A stretch of DNA of 64,000 bases from an uncultured Alphaproteobacteria bacterium (lineage in GTDB: Bacteria; Pseudomonadota; Alphaproteobacteria; Rs-D84): contig CALXOX010000004.1 of the NCBI GenBank assembly GCA_944390125.1, forward strand, positions 23,875 to 87,874, given 5' to 3'. This document shows positions 1 to 38,068 of this stretch, piece by piece. Numbering within the stretch: the first letter of the stretch is position 1; each line of letters begins with the position of its first letter. Under the pieces are notes generated by a model that was not told where the DNA came from, ran no database searches, and saw only the letters and a list, made by a program, of their open reading frames with translations. A program made the translations under genes and the position numbers.

Positions 1-91
1 GATTTTTCGACTTGTTTGGCATAGATGCCATACACGAAGCATCTGGTAAAACATATTCTGAATTATTGGCCATCCGGCGGGAGGTCGCGTA

Positions 92-460
92 ATGAAAGAC
101 TACGAAATGGGATATATGAAACCACCAAAATCAGGACAGTTTCGTCCTGGTCAATCGGGTAACCCCAAGGGGCGACCAAAGGGCAGTAAAAATACATACA
201 AGTTATTGGATGAAATTTTAAACGAAAAAGTTCAAATCGTTAAAAACGGCAATCCAATCAAAATACCTAAAAAGTTGGCGATGTTATTACAGGCGGCAAA
301 CAAAGCGGCCAAGGGTGACCTAAAAGCTCTTCAGATTTTAATCCCCTTGATGATAGAGGCGGATAATAAAAATGAAGAACTGGCCAAGGTCGCGGCGACC
401 ATCCGCCAGGATGACATGACCATAGTTAAACAATTTTTAAAGGATAATAAAAATGGATAA
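92..460 (+). CDS. Phage/GTA terminase small subunit-like protein (DUF5681-like, Gly/Pro/Lys-rich N-terminus)
   Basis: 122-aa ORF with N-terminal motif KPPKSGQFRPGQSGNPKGRPKGSKN typical of DUF5681/terminase small subunit-like proteins; stop overlaps start of the large terminase gene (453) by 8 nt, suggesting coupling. Confidence 0.5.
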   Translation: MKDYEMGYMKPPKSGQFRPGQSGNPKGRPKGSKNTYKLLDEILNEKVQIVKNGNPIKIPKKLAMLLQAANKAAKGDLKALQILIPLMIEADNKNEELAKVAATIRQDDMTIVKQFLKDNKNG

Positions 461-1889
461 AAATATATTTAACGCAATATTGCGTACGGATTTTAAGTCT
501 TTTGTCATAAAGGTGTTCAATGAGGTATCGCCCGGCTCAACATATATGGATAACTGGCATATAGACGTTATCTGTGATGCCGTTATGAATATGTATGATG
601 GCGAAAATCGACGTTTAATAATAAATATGCCACCGCGATATATGAAAAGTATAATTTGTTCGGTTGCGTTGCCTGCATGGCTGTTGGGACACAATCCCAA
701 ACTAAACATAGGATGCGTCAGTTATAACGATGAATTGGCGGCTAAATTTGCCAATAATTGCCGCGATGTTATGCAATCCGATTGGTATCGCGATTTGTTT
801 CCGATGACGCGCCTGCACCCGTCAAGACAGGCTATAAATGACTTTGAAACCACCCATGGTGGTGGCCGAATGTCCACTTCAATTGGCGGTACATTTACGG
901 GACGTGGGGTCGATTGGCTGATAATCGATGATCCGCAAAAGGCCTCGGATGCGAATTCAGAGGTTGCACGAACGAAACTAAACGATTGGTTCGGTACAAC
1001 CGCATATTCGCGCCTTAATGACAAGGCAACAGGAAAGATTTTGCTGGTTATGCAACGTTTGCACCAAGATGACCTGACCGGGCATTTATTGGATACCAAT
1101 TCAGGGTTTAATGTTATAAAACTCCCTGTTATTGCGACCGAGGATGAGACTTGGATAATTAAAAATCGAATTTTCGGTATAACACAGACAATCATTCGCG
1201 AACAAGGTGAACTGTTGCATCCTGTGCGTGAGAATACGCAAATTGTGGCGGAAATAAAGGAATCTATGGGAGAGTATGCATTTGTTGCACAATATCAGCA
1301 AGATCCATGCCCGCCAGAAGGCGGAATTGTCAAAGAGTCGTGGCTGAAATATTATGAGGATGCTGCCATAAATTCGCGACTTCAACCGAAGCACGTGTTT
1401 ATCAGTTGGGATACAGCTAATAAGACGGGTGATAATAACGCGTATTCTGTTGGGTGTGTAATTCTTATGACAAACAACTATAAATTTTACCTAATAGATA
1501 TAATTAGAGGGAAATGGGATACGCCGCAATTATTTGATAAAATAATAGAGGTATATAATGAATATAAATATAACCAACAGGCCGGCAATTATGTGAAATT
1601 GTTGATAGAGGACAAGGCTAGTGGCGAGTTCCTTATCCCGATGTTAGGTAAGGCACGTGATCGTGTCGGTCGGCGGATAGAGGTTGTACCCATTAAACCC
1701 ACGATAGATAAAATATCTCGCGCAAAGGCATTAGGTGTTATGATTGAAAAAGGGAATTTGCTATTTCCACAAAAAGATGAAGCCTGGTGGCAAAATTGTA
1801 AAAAGGAACTACTGGGGTTCCCAAATACAAAATATAAAGATCAGGTTGATGCCATGTCACAGTGTATAAACTATGCTATGCAACAATAA
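453..1889 (+). CDS. Phage terminase large subunit (Terminase_6/GTA-like): ATPase + RNaseH-like nuclease
   Basis: 478 aa; ATPase region (MPPRYMKS Walker A-like, LIIDDP Walker B), C-terminal nuclease with acidic residues (WDTANKTGDNNAYSVG ... KDQVDAMSQ); no portal/capsid genes follow, only an oppositely oriented lipoprotein gene. Confidence 0.8.
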   Translation: MDKNIFNAILRTDFKSFVIKVFNEVSPGSTYMDNWHIDVICDAVMNMYDGENRRLIINMPPRYMKSIICSVALPAWLLGHNPKLNIGCVSYNDELAAKFANNCRDVMQSDWYRDLFPMTRLHPSRQAINDFETTHGGGRMSTSIGGTFTGRGVDWLIIDDPQKASDANSEVARTKLNDWFGTTAYSRLNDKATGKILLVMQRLHQDDLTGHLLDTNSGFNVIKLPVIATEDETWIIKNRIFGITQTIIREQGELLHPVRENTQIVAEIKESMGEYAFVAQYQQDPCPPEGGIVKESWLKYYEDAAINSRLQPKHVFISWDTANKTGDNNAYSVGCVILMTNNYKFYLIDIIRGKWDTPQLFDKIIEVYNEYKYNQQAGNYVKLLIEDKASGEFLIPMLGKARDRVGRRIEVVPIKPTIDKISRAKALGVMIEKGNLLFPQKDEAWWQNCKKELLGFPNTKYKDQVDAMSQCINYAMQQ

Positions 1890-1920
1890 ACTCAACGCCC
1901 CATTTGGGGCGTTGTAAATA

Positions 1921-2343
1921 TCAATCTTCTTTCTGTTCAACGATACAATCCCTTTCCCATGAAAAACATTCTTGTTTTTGAATATCTTTTTTGGCGCAAT
2001 CCCCATAATACACAGGAACGGTTCTTTGGGCACTTGTCGCCGTTGTAAATGAGAATGATTTACGTGTATTCTCCAAAATTCCAGACCATACATAGTATTG
2101 GCCATCAACCCATTCATTCTCGTATTTACAATTCTCCAGAATCAATTTAACACTGTATACAACACCCCATTTTTCTCCTTGTGGTCCCAGATAGCCAACA
2201 TTCGCCAATGCAACTTTTTTTGTGCCTGACTGGTCAAGCACCTGATGAACATAAGCCCAATGTTTGACCTCTACATCTCTGGTTCCTGTGGTACAAGAGG
2301 TTAAGCTCAATAATCCTAATATAAAAAATGATACTTTTTTCAT
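1921..2343 (-). CDS. Putative lipoprotein
   Basis: MKKVSFFILGLLSLTSCTTG: signal peptide with lipobox (LTSC). Confidence 0.5.
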   Translation of the reverse strand: MKKVSFFILGLLSLTSCTTGTRDVEVKHWAYVHQVLDQSGTKKVALANVGYLGPQGEKWGVVYSVKLILENCKYENEWVDGQYYVWSGILENTRKSFSFTTATSAQRTVPVYYGDCAKKDIQKQECFSWERDCIVEQKED

Positions 2344-2347
2344 TTTG

Positions 2348-3031
2348 CTACTCCTTTGGTGGTATTTTGACTAATAAAAATTTGAACAGGCCGTTTTGTG
2401 CAGGCATCTCATAGAAATCCTGCCAAGTAAATTCATAGTTGTTCCTGATATCCAAATTTGGACGCGTTTTTAGCAATTTTTCTGGATTTGTGCAGTTGGC
2501 TAAATTCCAGTTATATTCCCCTTTGTATTTGGCTCCGGGGCTTATGCGAAATACATATGCCTGAGTTTTTATATTGCATTTGCCGTTCCAATAATATTTG
2601 TCATTGGCGATGCATATAAAGATACCACTGTGGGCAAAGCCACTATTTACCAATTTCTCTATACGCGATATGTCTTTCCAACAGTCATAACAGCCTTCGT
2701 CTTCGGCGCCTTGCGGTTTTAATATATCTCTTACTGGAATGCCGGTATCCTCATATTCTGCTTCAGAGTCTATTCTGTCGGTCTTGTACTTCAACTCAAT
2801 GGGGAATCTTTGACCATCGGCAACAATCAGAATATCAATATAAATCATCCGCCACTGCGTATCGTAAATACGTACTGGAAATTCGCGGTATATTTTAACG
2901 TCTGGGCGATCTTGAAATACCTGCATCAGTTCCCAGGTAAAAGATGCCTGAAAATCCGCCTCTGATACAAAAAAGCGATGTTTTTGCTTCAGGTTTATAA
3001 ATGCCGAAACAATAGATTTTGTAATATCCAC
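2348..3031 (-). CDS. Hypothetical protein with PD-(D/E)xK nuclease-like motif
   Basis: 227 aa; motif YIDILIVADGQRFPIELKYK gives D...E-x-K spacing typical of the restriction-endonuclease fold; no other recognisable domain. Confidence 0.35.
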   Translation of the reverse strand: MDITKSIVSAFINLKQKHRFFVSEADFQASFTWELMQVFQDRPDVKIYREFPVRIYDTQWRMIYIDILIVADGQRFPIELKYKTDRIDSEAEYEDTGIPVRDILKPQGAEDEGCYDCWKDISRIEKLVNSGFAHSGIFICIANDKYYWNGKCNIKTQAYVFRISPGAKYKGEYNWNLANCTNPEKLLKTRPNLDIRNNYEFTWQDFYEMPAQNGLFKFLLVKIPPKE

Positions 3032-3049
3032 ACCAATTCCCTGTTTTTA

Positions 3050-3270
3050 TAAATTAATGACCGTCAACGGAATTGACGGCCGGGGAGTTGGTGTCAGCAA
3101 ACGAATGCTCCGTGCTTTCGGGCAAGCCCTGTTGTATAGCGAACGGCTCCCCGACCACAGTCGGGGGATTTTAACGACAAATTTGTGCCGCGTCTGCGGG
3201 CCACCACAGCCCCGAACCCAATTCCCATTGGATTCAGAGAAAAGTGTACCGCTAGAAACAAAGTAAATCA
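3050..3270. ncRNA. GC-rich (~58% GC) structured element of unknown class in an AT-rich intergenic region; candidate non-coding RNA
   Basis: Perfect hairpin ccgtcaa-cggaa-ttgacgg, 7-bp closing helix cggggag...ctccccg, repeated accacag motif flanking tcggggg...ccccga helix. Only short overlapping ORFs on both strands (69/74 aa) with odd composition. No tRNA T-loop, RNase P P4, SRP domain IV or B12-box motifs found. Confidence 0.3.
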
Positions 3271-3311
3271 AGTTGATTTATTGTAATATGTTATGGATTT
3301 GATGTTATCAT

Positions 3312-4049
3312 ATGTTTATACTTAATAAGTATAGCATAAGGAACAAAATGTCATTTGATAACTGTGATTGTCAAAATAATGTTGCGTCTATGACGGATTT
3401 TTTTAGTGGACTAGACCCAGTAAAAAAGAAAATCTGTGAAATACTAAAAACTTTTAGTAATGACGCAGAAGATGCATACAAAGCTGCGATTTACATCTGG
3501 CAAATCCCTGATTTTCCGGCAAAGCAATCTATTGTTGCTCATTGTCTAGTAAATGTGATGGATGCAATAAATGAATATTCTGAAGATATTTTAAAAGGGC
3601 AATTATTTGACGCATTAAAAACTGTAGATTTTGTGAAAGAATCGGAAAAAACGGACTCAGACATTAACAAAATAATAACGTCTTTATGGAACCAAGGACT
3701 AAAAAAACTATATGATGAAAAAGTTAAAATGCGCGCGCTTTATATGGATAGAAATCCAACATTTGAACGTATGATGAAAGATGAAACTGTGGTGCAAGAA
3801 AAGAAACAGCAGATAAAACGGGAATTTGAAAAGAAAGCAGAAAAAATAAATTTTGCCAAGAGGGGGGATAATAGTTTAAATTCTTGTAGGCATTTGAATA
3901 TAAAATTTCATAAAATATCAGATTCTGAATTTGGCAATCATATAAGCAATATAGAAAACTATATTTTAGAATTAGATAATCCGCTATATCTTGAAAAAAA
4001 GGAAGTCTTGGATGGGATACTGGAAAGCGCCAACACAAAATCAGATTGA
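3312..4049 (+). CDS. Hypothetical protein (245 aa); possible start at MSFDNCD (3348)
   Basis: ORF with no recognisable motif; 3' end overlaps the start of the next ORF by 38-59 nt, suggesting an operon. Confidence 0.4.
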   Translation: MFILNKYSIRNKMSFDNCDCQNNVASMTDFFSGLDPVKKKICEILKTFSNDAEDAYKAAIYIWQIPDFPAKQSIVAHCLVNVMDAINEYSEDILKGQLFDALKTVDFVKESEKTDSDINKIITSLWNQGLKKLYDEKVKMRALYMDRNPTFERMMKDETVVQEKKQQIKREFEKKAEKINFAKRGDNSLNSCRHLNIKFHKISDSEFGNHISNIENYILELDNPLYLEKKEVLDGILESANTKSD

Positions 4050-6891
4050 TTTAGTTCTTAAGCATATTCAAGGAAATCTTAAGGCACAATTTTTTGCAAA
4101 ATTGGAAAATCCTTTATGGTTTGAAGAACTAAAAAAATACGAAGGATTGCTCTGGTATGAAACTATCCCAGGAAATGGTGACACTGACGATAGCTATTCG
4201 TGGCCAGCACTACCATATCTGATAAGAACTGCTTCAGAGAAACCAGTAGACATATACAATTTCTTACAGCCTTTAATAGATAAAATAAATGCGTGTACTA
4301 TTGAATCTTTTTGGTTCGCTCAAATGCTTGTTTTTTCAATTGCACCAAAGATGCCCGATGAACAATTTGTGACAATTATATCTGCTTTTGTATCATATAT
4401 GGAACAAATAAAATATATAGGGTGGTTCGATTATAGAGAATTGCCTATAGTGTTTGAAAGACTAAAAGGGATTGAACCGAAATTAGCGGATAAACTTGCT
4501 CATAATTTGCTGTGCGTTCATCTGGAAAAGTGGGGTGAACATGGCCTCTTAAATATTGTATCAAAATACGGAACAAATAATAGTTATAGATACAATGAAA
4601 TATTGAATTTAATGGAAAAGCTGTATGATAATGACTCAATTAAATTGTTTGATATTTTAATTCAAGTAATCAGTCATGACTTATATAAGGGCGTTTTGGA
4701 CGAAGACAGGAATAGGCATGAATATTGTGGGTATATTTATCGTCCTGCCATTGAAGATCACGCACAAAACCACTTCAATTATGAATTGGAAGACAATATC
4801 ATTAATATGATTAGAAATCTGGCGATGGAAATTCTGCATAAAGAACCAGAACAGATTGATTATGTTTTTAATAAGTTAGAGAGTTCTAATAGGCTGCTGC
4901 TAATTCGTGTCGCATTATATCTATTATCTAATTTAAATGATTTTGATGAAGCATTATTGTCAAAATATCTAACAAATTACGAATTTTTTGACGAATTAAA
5001 CTATCATCATGAATATTTTCATTTAATAAAAAATAAATTTAGTAAACTTTTGCCGGAACACCAAGAGCGTATACTCACTTATATAAAAAATGGGCCGATG
5101 GATGAATACTATAATATGGATGAGAAAAATTTTACTGCAGCAGACAAGCAAAAACGGTGGAAGTTTAATAAGTTGGTTCCAATTTTAGACCAATTGACTG
5201 ACGAACAGAAAGAGCCTTTTGTCAGTGTGCTTTTTGATGCGGACGGAAAGCCTTTGGAACCGGAAATCCACCCAGATTTTTTAAGTTGGATGGGAGATTT
5301 TAAGCCTGTTGTTCATAAATCTCCAGTTAACACAGAAGATATTAAAGATATGTCCATTGAGGAAATTGTTACTATTATGCAGAGCTGGCAACCGGTTAAA
5401 GATAACTGGATAAATGGAACTAGTCGACCAGGCTTAGCCAATACTATACAAGAAGATATTAAACAAAACCCTAAAAAATATATTCTGGAGCTAGAGGCTT
5501 TCCAATCTATATCTGAACCGACATATGTGCGTGCGATTATTCGCGGAATTTTGGAGTCTGGTATCAAAGAAGATGAAGATTGGATTAAACTTATAAAGTT
5601 TTGTGAGACAATTTTAATTCATGATGAAAATTTTGAAGGTCGCGATCCATTCCATGATGGTGATGATAGTTGGTATTGGGCAAAACAGGAAGTCGTGTCG
5701 GTTTTTAGTGCGGCTTTTCGTGAAAAAAATAATTTGTCTGGGGTTGATAGCGCCTTTCTTGAAGGTGTATATAAGGCTCTTAAAATGCTTGTTGAAGCTC
5801 AGGATGAAAATTTAGAGAAAAAAAGAACGGAAAATATCCCAGATCGTTTGCACACAGCAATAAATTCTCTGCATGGCCAAGCTGTGGAAGCCTTATTGAT
5901 ATATGTCTTATGGTTAAAAAATAATGATAAACCAAGAGAGCAAATTTTCCCTCTTTTGACCAAATTAGCATCAGAATCTCGCTATTTGGAAACGTTTGCA
6001 ATAATAGCGCGAATGATTTCATATATGGACTATGCTATTCCAGAGTGGGTTGTAGCTAATATTAATAACATATTTCCTACGGAGATAGGAAAAGAAGAGA
6101 TATTTAAAGCAACATGGCATGCATTTATTTTATATGGTCGGCAGTGTAAGTCTCTGTTTAAATTGTTAGAAACTAAATTTGCTTATGCTTTGAGTGCCGA
6201 TTGGTGGGATGCGGATGAAGGCAAACGGATTAGAGAGCGTACAGCCCAAGGGCTGGCATATTATTATGGGTGGGGAGCATTTGCGTTAGATTCTATTTTA
6301 GTGGAGTTGATCTTTAATTCGACAGATAAACAGATAGAACAAGTAGCCTTTATCAATTATATCGGTTTTTCGCTATGGGATAGAGATGGCCGAGGGGATG
6401 AGATTTCTAAGGATGTCTTGGCTCGTTTTATGAATTTGTGGGAATGGTTCATTGAAAAAATAAAAGATCATAGAGCTGATTATAAAAAAGTATTAGTCGA
6501 ATTTGAACGTTGGTATCAATGTGGAAGGTTCAAGGACGGTGGATGGGGAATAAATCAATTACATAGCTTGGTTATGGATGATGAACTTAAATTGACCATG
6601 TCATGTTTTATGTTAGAGGATAATTTATTGGAAGATTTGCCGCAATCTCCAAGGAAGGTATTTGATATTATTTCGCGTCTCGTATTGCGTGGGGATAGAT
6701 CTGATACCTTTAGCAGAAATGACATTGTAGAAAAAACATTGGAATTTATAAAAAATAATGATTTTCCAGATGATATGTTGTTAAAAAGTGACAAAGATTC
6801 TTTTATAAATAAAATGCTGGAACAATCTGAGGCTTGGGAGCTAGAGCAAAAAGAAGAGAGTTTTAATAGATACCTAGAAAATAGATATTGA
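3991..6891 (+). CDS. Large hypothetical protein (966 aa, predicted alpha-helical; no recognised catalytic motif)
   Basis: Long uninterrupted ORF with AT-rich codon usage consistent with the genome. Overlaps upstream ORF (alternative start ATG at 4012). No Walker, DEAD, HxD or nuclease motifs seen. Confidence 0.5.
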   Translation: MKKRKSWMGYWKAPTQNQIDLVLKHIQGNLKAQFFAKLENPLWFEELKKYEGLLWYETIPGNGDTDDSYSWPALPYLIRTASEKPVDIYNFLQPLIDKINACTIESFWFAQMLVFSIAPKMPDEQFVTIISAFVSYMEQIKYIGWFDYRELPIVFERLKGIEPKLADKLAHNLLCVHLEKWGEHGLLNIVSKYGTNNSYRYNEILNLMEKLYDNDSIKLFDILIQVISHDLYKGVLDEDRNRHEYCGYIYRPAIEDHAQNHFNYELEDNIINMIRNLAMEILHKEPEQIDYVFNKLESSNRLLLIRVALYLLSNLNDFDEALLSKYLTNYEFFDELNYHHEYFHLIKNKFSKLLPEHQERILTYIKNGPMDEYYNMDEKNFTAADKQKRWKFNKLVPILDQLTDEQKEPFVSVLFDADGKPLEPEIHPDFLSWMGDFKPVVHKSPVNTEDIKDMSIEEIVTIMQSWQPVKDNWINGTSRPGLANTIQEDIKQNPKKYILELEAFQSISEPTYVRAIIRGILESGIKEDEDWIKLIKFCETILIHDENFEGRDPFHDGDDSWYWAKQEVVSVFSAAFREKNNLSGVDSAFLEGVYKALKMLVEAQDENLEKKRTENIPDRLHTAINSLHGQAVEALLIYVLWLKNNDKPREQIFPLLTKLASESRYLETFAIIARMISYMDYAIPEWVVANINNIFPTEIGKEEIFKATWHAFILYGRQCKSLFKLLETKFAYALSADWWDADEGKRIRERTAQGLAYYYGWGAFALDSILVELIFNSTDKQIEQVAFINYIGFSLWDRDGRGDEISKDVLARFMNLWEWFIEKIKDHRADYKKVLVEFERWYQCGRFKDGGWGINQLHSLVMDDELKLTMSCFMLEDNLLEDLPQSPRKVFDIISRLVLRGDRSDTFSRNDIVEKTLEFIKNNDFPDDMLLKSDKDSFINKMLEQSEAWELEQKEESFNRYLENRY

Positions 6892-6918
6892 TATAACAAA
6901 ATATATTTATTTTATGTC

Positions 6919-7680
6919 TTACTCTGAATCTTGTTGTGTAATTTGTTGTAGCATGCGAATCAGCGTTCTAGATGTTATAAAACGTACGCATTTTTCATCG
7001 TCTGAAGCTCGTATTATCATACCAAGAACATCATTGTTATCGTCTAATACTGCCCCGCCACTGTATCCATTGAATGTAGCATGGCAATCATTTTGCTCAA
7101 AACTTAGTAAGCCTTGTTCTAATTCAAGTTCTTCTACATTTTCTGATTTGATTTTTATTAAGCACAAATAACGAGAAGATAATCGGATTATCTTATTTTC
7201 TTTGTCCATCTCTGCATCGGGGTATCCATATATTTTGTATTTGCTCCCTATTCTTAGAGGTTGAGTTGATAAGTTTAATGCCTCTATTCCCGATAATGAA
7301 GTGCCTTTATTATTCTTTAGTCTTTCTTCGTCTATACAAAGGAATAAGATATCAAATATTTTACCAACATTTTTTTCAATTGCTCGATGAACAAAATTTA
7401 TAGGAATTCGCCAGCAGTTAGGCGCTCCAGTAAAACCAAAAGAACAATTTTCTTCTATAACAGATTTTATCATGTCGTGCGATATATTGTTGTCATCAAT
7501 TATTCCGATTTTTGCGTAGCGATGTTTTATAATATTGCGAATGCAATGCCAGGCAGTTACAATAAATCTGGTTCCATTATAATGTAATAAATATGCTGTT
7601 CCACGAGTTTCATGAACCCAGCCATCACCATTTTCTAATGCTATAGGAAAAATAGATTTTAGAAGTATATTATCATTCAT
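6919..7680 (-). CDS. Trypsin-like (S1 family) serine protease
   Basis: 253 aa; His motif TAWHC, Ser motif GYSGGAV (GDSGG-like), cytoplasmic (no signal peptide). Start 20 nt downstream of the DUF488 gene stop on the same strand. Confidence 0.6.
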   Translation of the reverse strand: MNDNILLKSIFPIALENGDGWVHETRGTAYLLHYNGTRFIVTAWHCIRNIIKHRYAKIGIIDDNNISHDMIKSVIEENCSFGFTGAPNCWRIPINFVHRAIEKNVGKIFDILFLCIDEERLKNNKGTSLSGIEALNLSTQPLRIGSKYKIYGYPDAEMDKENKIIRLSSRYLCLIKIKSENVEELELEQGLLSFEQNDCHATFNGYSGGAVLDDNNDVLGMIIRASDDEKCVRFITSRTLIRMLQQITQQDSE

Positions 7681-7700
7681 TTTATTGCTCTATCAAATAA

Positions 7701-8126
7701 TTATAGATGTACAATCTCAATATCCGGGAATTGCTCTGCGATGTATTCAGCGGCGAGGCGGCGGTGGCATTGCATGGCGGACTTTTCCATGCATAACAGG
7801 CAGACGCGGTCAATGTTGTCGGGTGTCAATCCGGCGGTTGGGTGGCGCGTGGCCAGTAATTCACGATACATACGCTCATAATCGGGCCAGGTGATTTTGC
7901 CGTTTTTATATCCAGCCAGTATTTCCGCCGTTGGTGCAAATTCGGGGTGATGTTCATAACGCGTGCCCAGTGCTGCGACCAGTTTTTCGCCACTGTAAAA
8001 TGGCACATAGGTACTGGTGCGCCACAGGCGCACATCCCATACGGTACGGATGCGCACCGCATTCAGAACATCCATAAATGCATCTGGGCTCTTGCCGCTA
8101 AAACCGATTGTAAATATCTTTGCCAT
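7701..8126 (-). CDS. DUF488 family protein (copy 1)
   Basis: 141 aa; N-terminal IFTIGFSGK and C-terminal CLLCxEKSAxQCHRRL motifs characteristic of DUF488; ~75% aa identity with 21886..22311. Confidence 0.6.
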   Translation of the reverse strand: MAKIFTIGFSGKSPDAFMDVLNAVRIRTVWDVRLWRTSTYVPFYSGEKLVAALGTRYEHHPEFAPTAEILAGYKNGKITWPDYERMYRELLATRHPTAGLTPDNIDRVCLLCMEKSAMQCHRRLAAEYIAEQFPDIEIVHL

Positions 8127-8127
8127 A

Positions 8128-8778
8128 TCAATATAAAAATAGTCCGTTTAGCATCAAATAGCAATGATTTTCCTGCATCAGGAACTTTCGTGCCAATCCT
8201 ATACGACAATGGGCATATTGACTAGCCGCAATAGCATTGTTTAGGGTCGCGACATCTTTATCTTTTTCAAATATATCGCGCAAGTATTTGCAACTGACCT
8301 TTAATTCATAGGTTTGGTTTGAAAAATCCGTGATACGGGCACGTAATTTGCCGTCTTCTGTAAAGAATTCAATATTGTGTGCCGGAATCAATATGGCACC
8401 CAACGAAGGGCATTTGGTTTTCTGTGGTACATAGGCGTTTTCCTTGACGTGATGATGAAATATGCCCTGTATATCTTTTGAAACGCTATTGTGCAAAGCA
8501 TTGGCCAGCTCTTTTCCTGGCTCAAATTCTTGCAAAACCTCGATGGAGTCAAAGTCTATATTTACGTCCTCGGTTCGGTGGGGATAGTCACGCGGTTCTT
8601 TGAAATCCTCGTTATCGACGAGTATTTCGCAATATGTGGTCGGAATCTGACTGGCATCCCAGTATCCGCCGTCCAACATCAGGCGTTTCATACGTTTTTC
8701 ATAGGTGTCAAATCCGGCAATACAAAATTTTTCTTTCATACATGTTATGTCAGAGATAATGATATTCGATTTTTTCAT
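8128..8778 (-). CDS. Hypothetical protein (216 aa), partner of DUF488 (copy 1)
   Basis: Stop/start 1-nt gap with DUF488 gene; ~85% identical to 22313..22963; no recognisable domain. Confidence 0.5.
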   Translation of the reverse strand: MKKSNIIISDITCMKEKFCIAGFDTYEKRMKRLMLDGGYWDASQIPTTYCEILVDNEDFKEPRDYPHRTEDVNIDFDSIEVLQEFEPGKELANALHNSVSKDIQGIFHHHVKENAYVPQKTKCPSLGAILIPAHNIEFFTEDGKLRARITDFSNQTYELKVSCKYLRDIFEKDKDVATLNNAIAASQYAHCRIGLARKFLMQENHCYLMLNGLFLY

Positions 8779-9241
8779 GTAATTCCTTTTGGGTAATAAA
8801 AATCCCCACCGAGAACGGCGGGGTAAATAAAAAAAACGGCGATAACATCACCTGCTCAAATCGCTAAGTATTATATCAAAAATGGGCTAAAAAATCAATA
8901 AAAAAGATAATTTGCGAAATAAATTCCCTGTTATTTGTTTAGGGAATGTTTGGCGAGAACTGGGGAATGCACATCCTGCGCGTGGAGCAAAAGTGGTTTT
9001 TGTTCAAAAATGGCGAGAATTTCCCTGTAAATTCCCTGTTGTATGTAATAAACCGTAGAATCTTGCCACACCGCCAGGAATAATCAAAACCCCACAAAAT
9101 CCTTGTGGGGTTTGTTTTTGCCCCACTTTCCGGGACTTTTTTAATCTTGTATTACCACTGTATGTCTTATCATACCTTAAATATCCCATTTTCCGCATCC
9201 TAACATACTTTGGCATTTTTCGGACCTGCACAAGTATAGTA

Positions 9242-11628: not shown

Positions 11629-14124
11629 GTGACAATGACATTTGATAAGCTGCGTGATGACAATGAAGCGTACGCACGATTGAAGATAAATCAGAAATTG
11701 CATGATGCGGGTTGGTTTTTGACAGATACCCCAGATCATAAGCGAAACGTGAACGTTGAACAAAAGGTTGATGCGGGGTTTGCTGATTACGAACTGTTGG
11801 ATTCAAATGGTTTTCCTTTGTGTATTATAGAGGCGAAAAAGCCGTCCATAAATCCATTGAGTGCAAAAGAACAGGCGCGTCGTTATGCGGTTGAACATAA
11901 TATAAGATTTGTTGTTTTATCAAATGGTGAAATTTATTATTTGTGGGATATTAAGTCTGGAAACCCTCAAATTATAACACAGATACCAACACAAGAATCT
12001 TTGGAAATGCGCAGTGGTTTTGATCCAAGCACCAAAGATATAATGAAAGAAAATATAATTCCAGAATATGTAGCATTACAGAAGAATCCGCGTTTGTTGG
12101 ACATTCCAGAATATCAGAATCCAGAAACTCGTGGTGCATATTGTTGGAATAATGGGTTGCGCATATTGCGAGATTATCAACTTGGTGCAATACAGGCAGT
12201 GCAAAAAGCTATTGCTAATGGTCAAGACAGGTTCTTGATTGAAATGGCAACAGGACTTGGTAAAACATTGACCGCTGGTGCGATAATTCAAATGCTATTA
12301 CGCACAGGCCATGCACACAGGGTTTTGTTCTTGGTCGATCGTATTGAATTGGAACGCCAAGCGTATAAAAATTTTAATGATTATTTGTGCGATTTTATCA
12401 CAGTTATTTATAAAGAAAAGTCTGAAGAATGGCACAAGGCGGATATTGTTGTTTCAACTATTCAGACATTGATGGCAGGTGATAAATATAAAAAGTTTTC
12501 ACCAACTGATTTTGATTTTATTATATCCGATGAAGCACATCGTTCAATTGGCGGCAATAGCCGTGCTGTATTTGAATATTTTATTGGGTATAAATTAGGC
12601 TTGACTGCGACACCGCGTGATTACATCAAAAATGTGGATGTTGATAAAATAAAGCTCAATGACCCAAAAGCTCTTGAGCGTAGATTGTTACTGGATACAT
12701 ATGAAACATTTGGTTGTAAAAGCGGAACGCCAACATATAAATATTCAATGGTTGACGGTATAAAAAATGGTTATTTGGTTGCTCCTATGGCCATTGATGC
12801 GCGTACAGATATAACCACACAAATGTTATCTGAAAAGGGCTATCATGCTATTGGCGTTGATGAAAATGGCGAAGATGCCGAAGCCGATGTTGTTGTAAAG
12901 GATTTTGAAAAACGCTTTTTTAATGAAAATATAAATGCTGTATTTTGCAAAGCATTCTTAGAAAATGCAGAACGTGATCCAATAAGTGGCGAAATTGGAA
13001 AAACGTTGGTGTTTTGTGTCAGTCAATCGCACGCTGCCAAGATAACACAAATTTTAAATGAGTTTGCTATGCAGGCGTTCCCTGGAAAATATAACAGTGA
13101 TTTTGCGGTTCAGGTTACCAGCAATGTTCAAAACGCCCAAGATATGACGAACCAGTTTATGACAGATAGTAATAATCTGGGTGGAAAATCTACATTTTTA
13201 GAGGGCTATGATACGTCAAAAACTCGTGTATGTGTAACTGTTGGAATGATGACAACTGGTTATGACTGCAGTGATTTATTAAATATAGTATTTATGCGCC
13301 CGGTATTTTCACCAACTGATTTTGTACAAATGAAAGGACGTGGAACTAGAAAATATACATTCAAGTATATTGATGCTGATAAAAACGAAATAAAAAAGGA
13401 AAAAGAACACTTTAAACTTTTTGATTTCTTTGGAAACTGTGAATATTTTGAAGAAAAATTTGATTATGGTCAGCAGTTAAAGCTACCACAATTATCCAAG
13501 GGTGTTACTGCTGGAACTTCTGGGCAGGTGCGTACCTTTACAACATTGACATCAGAAGAAATTACAAAGCTTGTTCAAATGGAAACACTTGCTATACCTG
13601 ATAATGGCATGCGTATTGATCGTGAATTCTGGGGCAATTTCCAAAAAACAATTAGCGCCGATGCAGACATAAAAAATGCGGTCGACAATTCCGATTGGGA
13701 TTATGCGGTAGCCCTGGTTAAAGAAAAATACGAAAACAAGCCAGAATTATATCCTAACCTGGAACGGATTAAAAAGGCGACAAAATTGGACCGCCGTTTA
13801 TCTTGGCGCGAAATATTGGAACACATATTCGGTTTACTGCCCCGGTTTAAGACACGCGATGAAATGTTAGAAGACGAATGCGATAAATACATATCCATCG
13901 TTAAACCTGCACCTGAAATAGTTCCCTCTATTAAAAATTTTATAAAATTGTATGTTACAGATAACACATTTCGTGATATAATAGAAAAACAGGAATACCC
14001 AAGGCTTAACGCTGAAATTCCGGGTTTTAGTATGCAGGATTTAAAATTAATGGGCAAAGATATTCGCGAAAATTTACCTGAATACATCAAAGAAAATATC
14101 GTTTTAAATAAATATATGGGGTAA
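11629..14124 (+). CDS. hsdR: Type I restriction enzyme R subunit-like: N-terminal PD-(D/E)xK nuclease + SF2 helicase
   Basis: N-terminal DYELLD...CIIEAKK (D-E-x-K), Walker A EMATGLGKT, DEAH box SDEAHRS, motif VI QMKGRGTR; 831 aa; the M-S gene starts 5 nt after its stop. Confidence 0.75.
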   Translation: MTMTFDKLRDDNEAYARLKINQKLHDAGWFLTDTPDHKRNVNVEQKVDAGFADYELLDSNGFPLCIIEAKKPSINPLSAKEQARRYAVEHNIRFVVLSNGEIYYLWDIKSGNPQIITQIPTQESLEMRSGFDPSTKDIMKENIIPEYVALQKNPRLLDIPEYQNPETRGAYCWNNGLRILRDYQLGAIQAVQKAIANGQDRFLIEMATGLGKTLTAGAIIQMLLRTGHAHRVLFLVDRIELERQAYKNFNDYLCDFITVIYKEKSEEWHKADIVVSTIQTLMAGDKYKKFSPTDFDFIISDEAHRSIGGNSRAVFEYFIGYKLGLTATPRDYIKNVDVDKIKLNDPKALERRLLLDTYETFGCKSGTPTYKYSMVDGIKNGYLVAPMAIDARTDITTQMLSEKGYHAIGVDENGEDAEADVVVKDFEKRFFNENINAVFCKAFLENAERDPISGEIGKTLVFCVSQSHAAKITQILNEFAMQAFPGKYNSDFAVQVTSNVQNAQDMTNQFMTDSNNLGGKSTFLEGYDTSKTRVCVTVGMMTTGYDCSDLLNIVFMRPVFSPTDFVQMKGRGTRKYTFKYIDADKNEIKKEKEHFKLFDFFGNCEYFEEKFDYGQQLKLPQLSKGVTAGTSGQVRTFTTLTSEEITKLVQMETLAIPDNGMRIDREFWGNFQKTISADADIKNAVDNSDWDYAVALVKEKYENKPELYPNLERIKKATKLDRRLSWREILEHIFGLLPRFKTRDEMLEDECDKYISIVKPAPEIVPSIKNFIKLYVTDNTFRDIIEKQEYPRLNAEIPGFSMQDLKLMGKDIRENLPEYIKENIVLNKYMG

Positions 14125-14128
14125 TAAG

Positions 14129-16540
14129 ATGCTGGACGCCAGAACCAAACAAACCATTGATAACGCTTGTGATACGTTGGTTGGAAGAGTACCAAGCCCG
14201 CAGACACAGGTTGATATTATTACAACCGCATTGATTTATAAGTTTATGGACGATATGGACTTGGATGGTTTGGAATTATCGGGCAAACGCACGTTCTTTG
14301 TTGGCGATTTGGAACCATACGCATTTTCAACCGTCGTTAACACCAAGGGAAATCAAGAACGTATGAACTTGTATTTGACGGGACTTGAAAAAGTTCAGAT
14401 AGCCAAGTCAGTACCAGAATTATTTCGTCGTATTTTCAAAGAAGCGAATATTCCGTTCCGTGACCCAACAACATTTGCATTGTTTTTAAAGGAAATTAAT
14501 GAGTTAAAATATGATGATTCAGAAAAAATTGGCGATGCATTTGAATATTTATTAAACAAAATGTCTACTGCGAAGAATGCGGGACAATTTCGTACACCAC
14601 GCAATATAATTGACTTTATTGTTGATGTGGTAAAGCCGACAAAAAACGATACGATATTGGATCCTGCATGTGGAACGGCGGGCTTTTTGATTTCTGCATA
14701 TAAACACATTACATCAGACGGTAAATTAACACCGGACGAATTAAAACGGGTTACAAACAGCATTGTTGGATTGGATATTGACCCAACAATGGTAAAATTA
14801 AGTTTGGTTAACCTGTATCTGCATAAATTTGAACAACCCAATATTTATGAATATGATACATTGTCCATTGATGCGCGTTGGGGTGACAGATATGATGTTA
14901 TTTTGGCAAACCCACCGTTTATGACGCCAAAGGGTGGAATCACACCACATAAACGCTTTGCAATCAATGCAAACCGCAGTGAAGTATTGTTTGTTGATTA
15001 TTTTATGGAACATTTAACAATCAATGGTCGCGCCGGTTTTGTTGTTCCCGAAGGGATTATATTCCAAACCGCAAACGCATATAAAGATTTGCGTAAAATG
15101 ATGTTGGATGGTTATCTGTATGCGGTTGTGTCGTTACCTGCGGGTGTATTTAATCCATATGCCGGTGTAAAAACATCAATATTATTCTTTGACCGCGCAT
15201 TTGCAAAACAAAATAAAGATATATTATTTGTGCGTGTTGATAATGATGGATTTTCCCTGGGCGCACAACGCACACCAATTAAACAAAACGATTTACCCGA
15301 AGCGTTAAAGATTATCAATGAATACCGCGATGGTAAAGATGTATCGGGTTATGAACGCGCAATGGTTGTATCCAAAGAACGCATTGCCGAAAACAATTAT
15401 GATTTAACCGCTGCAAAATATATTGAAAAAGAAACGCGCGAATGCAAATATGAAATGGTTAAATTGGGTGATGTTTGCGAATTGTTAAATGGGTATGCGT
15501 TTAAAAGTGAATTATATACAGATACAGGTATTCGTGTAATGCGTATAACCAATGTGCAAAAAGGCGAAATTGTTGATGATAACCCAAAATTTTATCCTCT
15601 GGACAAACAAACAGAAATACAAAATTATATGTTACGCGAAAATGACTTACTTGTATCTTTAACGGGTAATGTCGGGCGTGTTGGTTTGTTGCCAAAGGAA
15701 TTATTACCTGCAGGATTGAATCAACGCGTTGCATGTTTAAGACCTGATGAAACCAAAATTTTGAAAGGGTATCTTTTCAGTGTGTTAAACCAAGACAAAT
15801 TTGAACACGATTGTATTGAATCATCTGGTGGTATAGCGCAAAAGAATCTAAGCACAGTTTGGTTGCAAAATTACGATATCCCACTCCCACCGTTGGATGT
15901 GCAGCAGCAGATTGTGGATGAAATTGAAAACAAGCAATCTGCAATCAACCATGCGCGTGAAATCATTAAAAATCTAGAAAGAGAGAGATTCTATTTTGCC
16001 GGCTTACTTGATGGGATAAATTACAACAAAGTAAAATTAGGCGATTTGTTAGATTACGAACAGCCAACAAAATATATTGTCAGTAGCACAGAATACGACA
16101 ATAAATATAAAGTTCCCGTTCTTACGGCAGGACAATCGTTTATTCTTGGGTATACAGATGAAACAGATGATGTTTTTGAAAATGTACCAGTAATTATTTT
16201 TGATGATTTTACAACTGCGTCAAAATATGTGAATTTCCCTTTCAAAGTAAAGTCATCCGCAATGAAAATTTTACATAATCACGATTCAAATGTAAGCGAT
16301 TTGAAATTCATTTACACAATGATGCAAAATATTACATTTGATAGTTCGACGCACAAAAGATATTGGATTTCTGAATTTTCTGACATTGAAATTCCATTGC
16401 CATCTATTGAAGACCAGAAGCGGATTGTTGCGAAATTGGAAGCGGAACAGGAAATTATTGACGCAAATAAACGCTTGATTGATTTAATGCAAGATAAAAT
16501 CAACCAGGTTATAAACCGTATTTACAAGTGTGACATGTAA
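14129..16540 (+). CDS. Fused N6-adenine DNA methyltransferase (HsdM-like) + specificity subunit (HsdS-like, two TRDs) of Type I-like R-M
   Basis: 803 aa; SAM motif DPACGTAGFL and catalytic NPPF (ANPPFM) in the N-terminal ~430 aa. The C-terminal ~370 aa holds two target-recognition domains (VKLGDVCELLNGYAF... and VKLGDLLDYEQ...), each followed by the HsdS conserved helix (PLPPLDVQQQIVDEIE, IPLPSIEDQKRIVAKLE). Confidence 0.75.
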   Translation: MLDARTKQTIDNACDTLVGRVPSPQTQVDIITTALIYKFMDDMDLDGLELSGKRTFFVGDLEPYAFSTVVNTKGNQERMNLYLTGLEKVQIAKSVPELFRRIFKEANIPFRDPTTFALFLKEINELKYDDSEKIGDAFEYLLNKMSTAKNAGQFRTPRNIIDFIVDVVKPTKNDTILDPACGTAGFLISAYKHITSDGKLTPDELKRVTNSIVGLDIDPTMVKLSLVNLYLHKFEQPNIYEYDTLSIDARWGDRYDVILANPPFMTPKGGITPHKRFAINANRSEVLFVDYFMEHLTINGRAGFVVPEGIIFQTANAYKDLRKMMLDGYLYAVVSLPAGVFNPYAGVKTSILFFDRAFAKQNKDILFVRVDNDGFSLGAQRTPIKQNDLPEALKIINEYRDGKDVSGYERAMVVSKERIAENNYDLTAAKYIEKETRECKYEMVKLGDVCELLNGYAFKSELYTDTGIRVMRITNVQKGEIVDDNPKFYPLDKQTEIQNYMLRENDLLVSLTGNVGRVGLLPKELLPAGLNQRVACLRPDETKILKGYLFSVLNQDKFEHDCIESSGGIAQKNLSTVWLQNYDIPLPPLDVQQQIVDEIENKQSAINHAREIIKNLERERFYFAGLLDGINYNKVKLGDLLDYEQPTKYIVSSTEYDNKYKVPVLTAGQSFILGYTDETDDVFENVPVIIFDDFTTASKYVNFPFKVKSSAMKILHNHDSNVSDLKFIYTMMQNITFDSSTHKRYWISEFSDIEIPLPSIEDQKRIVAKLEAEQEIIDANKRLIDLMQDKINQVINRIYKCDM

Positions 16541-16542
16541 CG

Positions 16543-17235
16543 ATGATAGTTGAGTATTCTAATGATAATCCTGTCTATTTATTGATGGATTTATTGCCCC
16601 CTCTTGACGATACTATTGACTATTTATATAAATACCAAGAAGATCTTGCTTATCATTACGAGCGTGGTTTTTATAATCTTGCGTTATTTTCATATCATCA
16701 ATTATACATGGCAATATTTCATATGTATGTATTAAAGTATCATAGAATGGATGTTGATGTTGCTAATTCTTGCAGAAGCGGGCGTCCCCCTATAACAGAT
16801 TTAACACCCGCTATTTATTCCGATGTAGGGGATGAAAAATCTCGTGTTAGGCTATTTGGTCGTAGAATTTCAGAAACAGTGAAAAATGATCATATGGATT
16901 TGGTAAAACAAAGGGATAGAATTGCCCATTTTACTGGTGACGTTGTAACAAAAGAACAAATTGATAAATATATAAAAAAATCTATAAATGTATTAAAGGG
17001 AATCCAACCTGTTGCATTTTATGAATTGCTTTTACATCCATCAGATAGATTTACAAAACATGCAGACGAAATACGTGCAGAAATGGATCAAACAGAAAAG
17101 TTTTATAAAATTTCGGGGTTAATCCGAGATTTTTATTTATCAAAAACAGATATTGATTTTTTAAAAGCTAAACCAGATTTCGTATTTTTTGATGAATATA
17201 TTTCAGAAAATGGCTATGAGCCAATTGAAGGGTAA
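16543..17235 (+). CDS. R-M operon-associated hypothetical protein, possible HEPN (DUF4145-like) domain
   Basis: Starts 3 nt after the M-S stop; contains R-x4-H motif (RDRIAH) compatible with the HEPN fold that is often linked to Type I R-M loci; otherwise unrecognised. Confidence 0.35.
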   Translation: MIVEYSNDNPVYLLMDLLPPLDDTIDYLYKYQEDLAYHYERGFYNLALFSYHQLYMAIFHMYVLKYHRMDVDVANSCRSGRPPITDLTPAIYSDVGDEKSRVRLFGRRISETVKNDHMDLVKQRDRIAHFTGDVVTKEQIDKYIKKSINVLKGIQPVAFYELLLHPSDRFTKHADEIRAEMDQTEKFYKISGLIRDFYLSKTDIDFLKAKPDFVFFDEYISENGYEPIEG

Positions 17236-21885: not shown

Positions 21886-22311
21886 TTATAAATGCACAAT
21901 CTCAGTGTCGGGGATTTGCTCTGCAATGTATTCAGCAGCGAGGCGGCGATGGCATTGTAGGGCGGATTTTTCTGTGCATAACAAGCAGATGCGGTAAATG
22001 TCGGCAGGGGCGAGTCCCTCGATCGGGTGGCGCGCAGCCAGCAATTCGCGATACAGCTTTTCATAATCGGCCCAAGTGATGCGGCCTTCTTTGTATCCAG
22101 CCAATATTTCGGTCGTTGGGGCAAATTCGGGGTGATATTCGTACCGCGCGCCCAATACCGTGGCCAGATTTTTGCCACTGTAAAATGGAACGTACGCGCT
22201 GGCGCGCCAAAGCCGAATATCCCAAACACAGTTTATCTTGGCTGCATTCAGGATATCCAAAAAATCATCGGGCTTTTTGCCACTAAAACCAATTGTAAAA
22301 ATCTTTGTCAT
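21886..22311 (-). CDS. DUF488 family protein (copy 2)
   Basis: 141 aa; same motifs as 7701..8126 (CLLCTEKSALQCHRRL). Confidence 0.6.
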   Translation of the reverse strand: MTKIFTIGFSGKKPDDFLDILNAAKINCVWDIRLWRASAYVPFYSGKNLATVLGARYEYHPEFAPTTEILAGYKEGRITWADYEKLYRELLAARHPIEGLAPADIYRICLLCTEKSALQCHRRLAAEYIAEQIPDTEIVHL

Positions 22312-22312
22312 A

Positions 22313-22963
22313 TCAGTATAAAAATAACCCGTTTAACATTAAATAGCAATGATTTTCCTGTATCAGGAATTTGCGTGCCAACCCTATACGACAATGAGCA
22401 TACTGACTGGCGGCAATGGCATTATTCAAATTTTCGACATCTTTACCTTTTTCAAATATATCGCGCAAGTATTTGCAACTGACTTTTAATTCATAGGTTT
22501 GTTTGGAATAGTCCGTGATACGTGCGCGCAGTTTGCCGTCTTCCGTAAAGAATTCAATATTGTGTGCCGGAATCAATACGGCACCCAACGAAGGACATTT
22601 GGTTTTCTGTGGCACATAAGCATTTTCTTTGACATGATGATGGAATATACTTTGTATGTCTTTTAATATGCTACTTTTTAGTGCGTTTGCCAACTCTTTT
22701 CCTGGTTCAAATTCTTGCAAAATCTCTATAGATTTAATATCTATGTTGACATCTTCGGTTCGGTGTGGGTAATCTCGTGGTTCTTTAAATTCTTCATTGT
22801 CGACCAATATTTCACAATATCTGGTCGGAATCTGATTAGCGTTCCAATAACCAGCGTTTATCATCAGACGTTTCATGCGTTTTTCATATGTATCAAAACC
22901 TGCAATACAGAATTTTTCTTTCATACATGTTATGTCAGAAATAATTATATTTGATTTTTTCAT
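22313..22963 (-). CDS. Hypothetical protein (216 aa), partner of DUF488 (copy 2)
   Basis: Start trimmed to MKKSNIIIS by analogy with copy 1 (the ORF track extends to 23011); ~85% aa identity to 8128..8778. Confidence 0.5.
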   Translation of the reverse strand: MKKSNIIISDITCMKEKFCIAGFDTYEKRMKRLMINAGYWNANQIPTRYCEILVDNEEFKEPRDYPHRTEDVNIDIKSIEILQEFEPGKELANALKSSILKDIQSIFHHHVKENAYVPQKTKCPSLGAVLIPAHNIEFFTEDGKLRARITDYSKQTYELKVSCKYLRDIFEKGKDVENLNNAIAASQYAHCRIGLARKFLIQENHCYLMLNGLFLY

Positions 22964-23360
22964 GTGCTTCCTTTGGGGTAACAAAAATACCCACCAAGAA
23001 CGGCGGGGCAAATAAAAAACGGCGATATAAATCGCCCGCTTAACTCAATGAGATATTATACCAAAATTGGGTTAAAAAATCAATAAAAAAAGATTGTGTT
23101 CTAAATAAATACCCTGTATTTATCGTATCTGATACCGTCAAATGTTACAACCCCGCCAGGAATAAATAAAACCCCACAAAATCCTTGTGGAGTTTATTTT
23201 TTGCCCAGTCAAAACCATGTTCATACATATCTTTATATTTCCACGCAGTTGCAAAGTTTTTTCATCTTTATACGGGGATACATCAATAAAACGTGTTGCA
23301 GCCGATTTCGTTTGCATATTAGATTTGGTTATATATAATTTAAACTCTAAAGGAGAGATT

Positions 23361-37973: not shown

Positions 37974-38068
37974 GACTTCCTCTCTTTTGTATTTCATTCT
38001 AGAAAAAAAGCTATATATCACGCAAGAGAAAAAGTAAAAAAAATCACATTGGTATAAAAATAAAAAAA

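Follow-up and report, generated by a model that had tools for sequence, protein, structure and literature searches.

For proteins of the RapZ-C-DUF488-DUF4326 clade, a function in the processing of DNA ends within virus-host conflict systems was reportedly predicted by Burroughs and Aravind in 2023, and the Pfam entries PF22557 ("Dual OB-containing domain", hereafter DuOB) and PF22751/PF22752 presumably derive from the same work. The PADLOC models designated 'PDC' represent unvalidated phage-defense candidates, and two of them, PDC-M45B and PDC-M45C, match DUF488 proteins encoded in a three-gene arrangement with DuOB, which we refer to as the canonical system. Here we describe a relative of this system in a 64,000-nt stretch of DNA ("the window", i.e. 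the whole stretch that was analyzed) from an uncultured alphaproteobacterium (GenBank assembly GCA_944390125.1, contig CALXOX010000004.1, positions 23,875 to 87,874). The window contains two copies of a cassette in which a DuOB gene is followed by a gene for a short protein of the DUF488-N3a type. This cassette is a rare, reduced two-gene form of the DuOB/long-DUF488/DUF488-N3a system, itself a conflict system known from computational prediction. That it serves as a conflict or defense module itself is the reading we favor, with a confidence somewhat better than even; such a module would probably be anti-phage and directed at nucleic acids.

Comparison with the three-gene system

Two samples of loci were set beside the window. 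The first, referred to as the clade, comprises 59 loci from species-representative genomes, mostly of gut "Candidatus Enterousia" and related Alphaproteobacteria with some Holosporales, and was collected through DuOB patterns. The second comprises 80 metagenome loci of the canonical family outside this clade, 65 of which could be judged for gene order. The order DuOB, DUF488 of ~210 aa, DUF488-N3a of ~148 aa is found in 62 of these 65 loci, while in two DuOB is directly followed by N3a and in one the arrangement is inverted. It is because of this predominance of the three-gene order that we regard the form found in the window as rare and reduced. The middle gene of the canonical system matches PDC-M45B (E-value 1e-74) and keeps the catalytic motif, and the third gene matches PDC-M45C (5e-69). 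A long DUF488 of the PDC-M45B type is present neither in the two window copies nor in any of the 59 clade loci.

The window shares with the three-gene system the same DuOB family with all of its invariant residues, the C..C.E..CHRR motif of DUF488, the first position of DuOB, the tight coupling of the genes, and an N3a gene of the PDC-M45C type adjacent on the same strand. It differs in the lack of the middle gene, which is common to the whole Enterousia/Holosporales-like clade, and in a leader with two terminators, which the two-gene clade has gained. With respect to PADLOC, the DUF488 of the window is recognized by PDC-M45C (1.9e-34), whereas the PDC-M45B-type gene is missing and DuOB proteins match no model at E<=1; the pair would thus escape the PDC-M45 model set.

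DuOB and DUF488 form a tightly coupled unit. In all 35 species-level loci of the clade with an intact DuOB and enough contig, DUF488 is the next gene downstream, in 22 of them with a gap of 1 nt as in both copies of the window; two further intact DuOB genes are cut by the end of the contig, and none stands alone. Moreover, a natural single-chain fusion of DuOB and DUF488 exists (P0285). An earlier preliminary description of this DNA had reported the gene pair, its occurrence in two copies and the 1-nt gap; all of these features are confirmed by our analysis.

Predicted structure and function of the two proteins

Both DuOB copies align end to end with PF22557 (profile positions 3-208 out of 210), copy 2 with 27.8 bits and copy 1 with 25.5 bits, at a cut-off of 27. 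A search with a profile of the window clade among 1.84 billion proteins identified 385 representatives of the family, 189 of them at E<=1e-10. Most of these relatives have 215–230 aa, many carry a precomputed PF22557 match, and NCBI and UniRef label them "dual OB domain-containing protein". Among 42 diverse members C19, R32, P66-H67, S125-L126, R192, G194 and N211 are invariant, and all of these residues are present in the window; T12, W40, E70, D71, F107, H190 and C206 are nearly invariant. Four fusions of an N-terminal HRDC, which is a nucleic-acid-binding domain, to DuOB were found among remote relatives (P0209, P0240, P0263 and P0282), as well as a protein of 637 aa (P0218) that carries DuOB C-terminally and otherwise matches no Pfam family.

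The AlphaFold2 model of DuOB (mean predicted confidence, pLDDT, 84) consists of two beta-rich halves. A Foldseek search with the full-length model returned the tandem-OB domains of HIN-200 proteins, Teb1 and RPA70 (E-values 3.6e-4 to 1e-2), and the predicted structure accordingly contains two OB folds. Like these proteins, DuOB accommodates two consecutive OB folds in ~200 residues, and unlike them it has its own invariant set of Cys, His, Glu, Asp and Ser residues. Because the template-modeling (TM) scores lie between 0.25 and 0.41 and the sequence identity between 7 and 13%, we treat the likeness as an architectural analogy and not as demonstrated homology. The HIN-200 domains of AIM2, IFI16 and p202 are DNA sensors of animal innate immunity.

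The DUF488 protein of copy 1 matches Pfam DUF488 with 66 bits. Against PF22751, which represents the active subclade DUF488-N3a, copies 1 and 2 score 39.5 and 37.8 bits (cut-off 27), and against the inactive N3i model 17.8 and 18.6 bits, which is below the cut-off of that model. The CxE...CHRR motif (CLLCMEKSAMQCHRR), which the preliminary description had already noticed, is invariant across the relatives, with C109, C112, E114, C120, H121 and R122 as the invariant residues. The predicted structure (pLDDT 80) resembles diphthine-synthase-like (diphthine/tetrapyrrole-methylase) folds, protein tyrosine phosphatases (PTP) and dual-specificity phosphatases, and RapZ-C. In this model the active site would have the strand-loop-helix form known from cysteine phosphatases, with C112 closing the strand and R122 opening the next helix, which makes C112 the likely nucleophile. 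The differences from PTP-type enzymes are a Cys-Arg spacing that exceeds CX5R, the additional invariant residues C109, E114, C120 and H121, and an identity of only 7–19%. PDB sequence and profile searches revealed no relative of DuOB or DUF488 with a solved structure, NCBIfam gave no match for any gene at the locus, and the PHROGs collection yielded only weak matches to DUF488. Hence the 216-aa protein, initially described as unknown, does have a family: the Pfam assignments and the PDC-M45C match place both proteins, and the structural comparison suggested at that stage leads to tandem OB folds for one and to phosphatase-like folds for the other.

These predictions outline a possible mechanism. 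The two OB folds of DuOB would bind foreign DNA that is invading or being replicated, either at its ends or in single-stranded form (ssDNA). DUF488-N3a, with its predicted rhodanese-phosphatase fold, would be an enzyme that depends on a cysteine, with C112 as the likely nucleophile together with R122, and would remove or transfer, at the end of the bound nucleic acid, either a phosphate or a group attached through one. Ends treated in this way could then not be ligated, extended or packaged, and two terminators in the leader of the operon (see below) would restrict expression unless transcription passes them. In this specific form, i.e. binding of DNA ends or ssDNA combined with cysteine-phosphatase-type processing of terminal phosphates, the proposal commands less of our confidence than the conflict or defense role as such. 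What the sequences establish is the membership in the two families, the predicted folds, the linkage and fusion of the proteins, purifying selection on both copies, and variable locations rich in defense genes and mobile elements; substrate, chemistry and phenotype are inferred.

Genomic context: defense genes, housekeeping genes and mobile elements

In seven loci (L081, L090, L093, L094, L109, L116 and L117) the canonical triad is located inside a class 1 DISARM operon, in the order DrmD, DrmMI (E-value 0), triad, a gene with helix-turn-helix and Peptidase_M78 domains, a gene for a 170-aa protein, and DrmA (5e-254). In Asticcacaulis the triad is found between PD-Lambda-2 and Kiwa, and in Mesorhizobium and Aestuariivirga beside PDC-M30/M41 genes and AIPR, with HNH accompanying AIPR. 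Immediate neighbors in the clade include PD-Lambda-4_A (4-5 loci), cll, Dcm, PDC-S01, PDC-S41, PDC-M11A, IetS and GajB. In the window itself, PADLOC identifies a type I restriction-modification (R-M) system, Gabija (GajA 1e-171, GajB 2e-151) and a Cas4-like nuclease between the two copies, which confirms that the cassettes stand at both edges of an R-M/Gabija island. Co-location with known defense systems therefore recurs in the canonical loci, in the clade and in the window. It supports a defense role, and does not prove it.

The neighbors in the clade fall into 347 gene clusters over 59 loci, i.e. there is no conserved synteny, a pattern typical of accessory modules that are small and mobile. 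Other strains of this species match the window at 99.8-100% identity from position 1 to ~9080; past that point, upstream of the cassette, the sequences no longer correspond, and there the strains carry either the R-M/Gabija island, or helicases and a recombinase, or HNH and nrdDG. The identity ends at ~9076-9082, beside a hairpin, and each genomic context has its own distinct terminator hairpin just upstream of the shared ATTCCTGGCGG border. This border (9076-9125 in copy 1, 23134-23207 in copy 2) looks like a hotspot of recombination or insertion.

Several observations speak against a role in conflict or defense. Ordinary genes adjoin the canonical triad in Devosia (polA), in a Sphingomonadales metagenome-assembled genome (thiC) and on one further contig. 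Housekeeping genes are numerous among the immediate neighbors in the clade (queA, cysS, frr, bamA, ppdK and metK), and another Enterousia species has rpoZ, miaB and holB next to the pair. The co-location described above is a listing of individual loci and not an enrichment statistic. Beside the silence of the PADLOC models on DuOB, tblastn searches with the window DuOB against a plasmid collection and a phage collection of 50,697 records, and with the Mesorhizobium DuOB against the plasmid collection, gave no match. Literature searches for DUF488, and for DUF488 with phage, returned no experimental test of any family member, and those for DuOB with DUF488 and for PDC-M45/PDC-M19 returned nothing. 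The persistence of DUF488 after the decay of DuOB, discussed in the next section, belongs on the same side of the balance. Of the contexts that the preliminary description had asked about, defense genes recur, synteny is not conserved, and housekeeping neighbors are many.

Such neighbors could be accommodated if the pair were an accessory unit for the repair of DNA or RNA ends, with a phosphatase for damaged termini and a targeting subunit analogous to single-stranded-DNA-binding proteins, and had no part in immunity. The strong purifying selection, the survival of DUF488 on its own and the fact that the OB-fold matches of DuOB are replication and repair proteins are all consistent with this possibility. 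We nevertheless regard it as unlikely, in view of a family that is small and patchy (385 representatives out of 1.84 billion proteins), the variety of its neighbors, the decay of DuOB in at least 14 of the 59 clade loci, the presence of two divergent alleles in one genome, and a canonical system that is embedded in DISARM and adjoins Kiwa, PD-Lambda-2 and PD-Lambda-4.

The genes could alternatively serve the maintenance or anti-defense functions of a mobile element on which they reside. Copy 1 sits at the variable end of an element with the terminase large subunit (TerL), a ParB-methylase and a serine recombinase, whose TerL gene is ~6 kb away; the block from 1 to 9080 that contains it is conserved among strains; TerL or ParB-methylase occurs within 10 kb in roughly one third of the clade loci with long flanks; and one related contig that carries the pair is classified as viral in IMG/VR. 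On this account the pair would process the DNA ends of the element itself. The element is absent, however, from many loci, including P0007-type genomes and all canonical loci examined, no DuOB was found in the 50,697 phage records, and copy 2 has no such element alongside. This explanation appears distinctly improbable to us, and we retain that of a conflict or defense module, carried in part by mobile DNA.

The part of the phage-like element that lies within the window comprises DUF5681, TerL and a protein of 227 aa (p227). TerL is not followed by portal or capsid genes. The element continues past the left end of the window, where L071-L076 show a ParB-N6/N4 methylase, a serine recombinase and DUF2924.

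Loss of DuOB and persistence of DUF488

Among the clade loci with a truncated or frameshifted DuOB, at least ten (L049 and L051-L059) retain an intact DUF488 with its motif, while what remains of DuOB are its last 17-70 codons. Among six of these loci the ratio of nonsynonymous to synonymous substitution rates (dN/dS) of the orphan DUF488 amounts to 0.04-0.18. The converse, a DuOB without DUF488, was never seen. The survival of a DUF488 under selection after the decay of DuOB weakens a simple model of defense that requires both parts. The orphan DUF488 is reminiscent of orphan methylases or antitoxins, or else it may be an enzyme whose targeting subunit is dispensable.

The same asymmetry motivates a rival explanation, in which the pair works in the manner of an R-M system or a toxin with its antidote: DUF488 would protect or modify and could stand alone, and DuOB would be the harmful or discriminating partner, which a cell could not tolerate in the absence of DUF488. 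All intact DuOB genes are paired or cut by a contig end, in line with this model. In addition, the invariant or nearly invariant polar residues of DuOB (C19, R32, H67, E70, D71, S125, R192, C206 and N211) exceed what a passive binder would need, and the two leader terminators suggest that low expression is required. The counts of orphan DUF488 are, however, biased, because the loci were found through DuOB patterns, and the fusion partner of DuOB in the canonical system is the long DUF488 and not N3a. We consider such a division of roles unlikely, about on a par with the repair unit discussed above; it would be a variant mechanism that is still compatible with a role in defense.

Promoter, leader and possible regulation

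A promoter-like site upstream of DuOB is conserved, as judged by eye, in ~22 of 24 aligned cassettes. Between this site and the ribosome-binding site, 33 of 38 clade cassettes keep two elements that resemble intrinsic terminators, and each hairpin is found with several different stem sequences. For comparison, 2 of 38 canonical three-gene loci have even one such element. Since the stem sequences differ among the 33 cassettes, it appears that the structure of the leader and not its sequence has been conserved, by compensatory changes. RNAalifold gave no consensus for the leader alignment, in which the stems are out of register, and we relied instead on a terminator count for each sequence together with a control set. 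Judged from sequence, the two terminators point to an attenuated, possibly inducible, expression.

Upstream of the -35 hexamer of copy 1 there are three 16-nt direct repeats (AAATTCCCTGTT-like), which are also found in other loci and species and of which copy 2 lost two through a 91-nt deletion. They may constitute a putative binding site for a regulator; the cassette itself encodes none. The leader belongs to no Rfam family, the sole match being below the threshold and attributable to chance. With respect to toxin-antitoxin systems of type II or type III, no toxin or antitoxin Pfam domain was detected, and the leader has no tandem RNA repeats and no Rfam match.

A more speculative reading, which we rate slightly below the two unlikely alternatives above, combines these features into a minimal self/non-self system that operates on nucleic-acid ends. 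DUF488-N3a would set or remove a protective, phosphate-linked terminal mark, and DuOB, a tandem-OB protein with an invariant Cys/His/Glu/Asp/Ser cluster, would read the ends and act on unmarked ones. The operon would be held off by the two tandem terminators and would be switched on when termination is disturbed, e.g. by phage antiterminators. Such a system would account for the occurrence of DUF488, but not of DuOB, on its own, for the attenuated expression, and for the presence of the triad in DISARM, which is itself based on modification.

The two copies and their surroundings

The coordinates of the cassettes and of other features of the window are listed in Table 1. The repeated DNA extends from ~7699 to ~9125 and matches 21884 to ~23207, at a spacing of 14185 and with a 91-nt indel upstream of the genes. 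It takes in ~350 nt upstream of DuOB and ends 2 nt past the stop codon of DUF488, in agreement with the earlier remark that the cassette of copy 2 ends at that stop. In copy 1 the TGA stop of DuOB is separated by a single nucleotide from the start of DUF488 (TGA-T-ATG), and the TAA stop of DUF488 by 20 nt from the ATG of a protease gene. For DuOB of copy 2 we used the ATG homologous to that of copy 1; the mechanically predicted open reading frame (ORF), which starts with TTG, extends to 23011. In our best reading each copy is a self-contained unit of ~1.4 kb with its own promoter, a two-terminator leader, DuOB and a translationally coupled DUF488-N3a. The copies are now 1.4-kb direct repeats that flank the R-M/Gabija island.

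Table 1. Features of the window discussed in the text (positions refer to the window; aa, amino acids)
Feature	Position	Strand	Remarks
DUF5681	92-460		phage-like element
Terminase large subunit (TerL)	453-1889		phage-like element
p227	2348-3031		227 aa; phage-like element (1-3031)
p245	3312-4049		245 aa; AT-rich block (3312-7680)
p966	3991-6891		966 aa; AT-rich block
Trypsin-like serine protease	6919..7680	-	253 aa; Pfam Trypsin_2 27.8 bits; adjacent, not a core part
DUF488-N3a, copy 1	7701..8126	-	141 aa, phosphatase-like (predicted); motif C109, C112, E114, C120-H-R-R
DuOB, copy 1	8128..8778	-	216 aa, tandem OB-fold; likely nucleic-acid-binding subunit (predicted)
Leader, copy 1	8804..8852	-	two hairpin-plus-U-run elements, 8852-8838 and 8823-8804, between promoter and DuOB ribosome-binding site
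Promoter-like site, copy 1	8870..8898	-	TTGATT-17-TGnTATAAT, near-consensus extended -10
Three 16-nt direct repeats	8921..9044	.	8921-8936, 9018-9033, 9029-9044, upstream of -35 hexamer
5' border of repeated unit	9052..9125	.	bidirectional terminator-like hairpin 9087-9113
HsdR-like gene	11629-14124		type I R-M (PADLOC)
HsdM-HsdS fusion	14129-16540		type I R-M (PADLOC); 803 aa
Unannotated ORF	16543-17235		230 aa; GC3 20%
GajA	17361-19304		Gabija (PADLOC)
GajB	19306-20871		Gabija (PADLOC)
Cas4-like nuclease	21024-21869		PADLOC
DUF488-N3a, copy 2	21886..22311	-	141 aa; Pfam DUF488 62.7 bits, N3a 37.8 bits; protein identity to copy 1 74%
DuOB, copy 2	22313..22963	-	216 aa; Pfam DuOB 27.8 bits; protein identity to copy 1 90%
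Promoter-like site and leader, copy 2	22990..23083	-	promoter 23083-23055; hairpins 23036-23021, 23007-22990
Large ORF	31071-38021		2316 aa; higher-GC stretch (45%); internal 591-nt repeats 34396-35361

At the DNA level, the two DuOB genes are 84% identical, with a synonymous divergence (dS) of 1.26 and dN/dS of 0.04, and the two DUF488 genes are 77% identical, with dS of 0.83 and dN/dS of 0.20. Neither copy is disrupted, and purifying selection acts on both. The cassettes nearest to copy 1 (L008 and L020, 90-92%) are not those nearest to copy 2 (L006, L007 and L012, 87-88%). Because dS is ~1 and the two copies have their nearest relatives in separate allelic lineages, they are not recent duplicates; a recent duplication in place, which the word "duplicated" in the preliminary description would suggest, is rejected on these grounds. 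Judged from these distances, the copies are old divergent alleles, and the likeliest history is that at least one of them was acquired by horizontal transfer.

Among the genes between the copies, the methylase and specificity subunits of the type I R-M system form a single fused protein, and an unannotated ORF with a low GC content at third codon positions (GC3) lies between this fusion and GajA. Outside the island, the equivalent of the 2316-aa protein in a related genome has Flg_new repeats, an indication of a large surface protein.

The trypsin-like protease adjacent to copy 1

As had been described, a protease gene with the TAWHC and GYSGG motifs is found 20 nt downstream of DUF488 in copy 1, on the same strand. 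It had been proposed that DuOB, DUF488 and this protease form one three-gene defense operon with the protease as the effector. The gap contains no terminator, which would allow co-transcription of DUF488 and the protease in this strain, all six places with the exact protease show the same arrangement, and the protease resembles LmuA (4e-10) and RT-Protease_XI (5e-9) among the PADLOC models.

The wider comparison leads to a different conclusion. The protease is missing beside copy 2, in all 59 species-level clade loci (phmmer E<1e-5) and in all 80 canonical loci, no match to it was found in JGI metagenome contigs or plasmid collections, and it occurs next to DUF488 solely among strains of this one species; in other species unrelated genes take its downstream position. 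Its GC3 of 23% differs from that of DUF488 (54%) and DuOB (43%) and is similar to that of the adjoining AT-rich genes p245 and p966 (27-30%), and a promoter-like site (7696-7669) overlaps the 20-nt gap. Furthermore, no SMC-like (LmuB) gene of the kind expected in a Lamassu-type system is present beside it. The protease is therefore a neighbor in one species, situated within an AT-rich insert together with two unknown genes, and not a component of the cassette; across the family, a three-gene operon is for the most part ruled out, and we consider it the least probable of the explanations discussed here. Of the proposed defense module, what stands is a tight two-gene unit linked to defense and mobile DNA; the protease as its third component and its description as uncharacterized do not.

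The AT-rich block (GC3 23-30%) could be a separate module. Its genes p245 and p966 converge on the protease and have no Pfam, PADLOC, PHROG or NCBIfam match, and the block is confined to this species, save for p966 alone in L003. A relationship of p966 to the PD-Lambda-4_A-like gene found at the same position in other species was considered and rejected, as the two show no similarity.

Implications

The removal of the protease takes away a misleading lead and leaves a cassette of two genes with 1.1 kb of coding sequence, which is the smallest natural form of the system and of which a gut alphaproteobacterium possesses two alleles, divergent from each other and both intact. The occurrence of the triad in DISARM, the persistence of DUF488 beyond DuOB and the two-terminator leader provide concrete hypotheses on the regulation of the system and on the roles of its subunits. 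If the cassette is active, it would represent a new chemistry in bacterial immunity, in which a tandem-OB partner directs an enzyme with the fold of cysteine phosphatases to the ends of nucleic acids.

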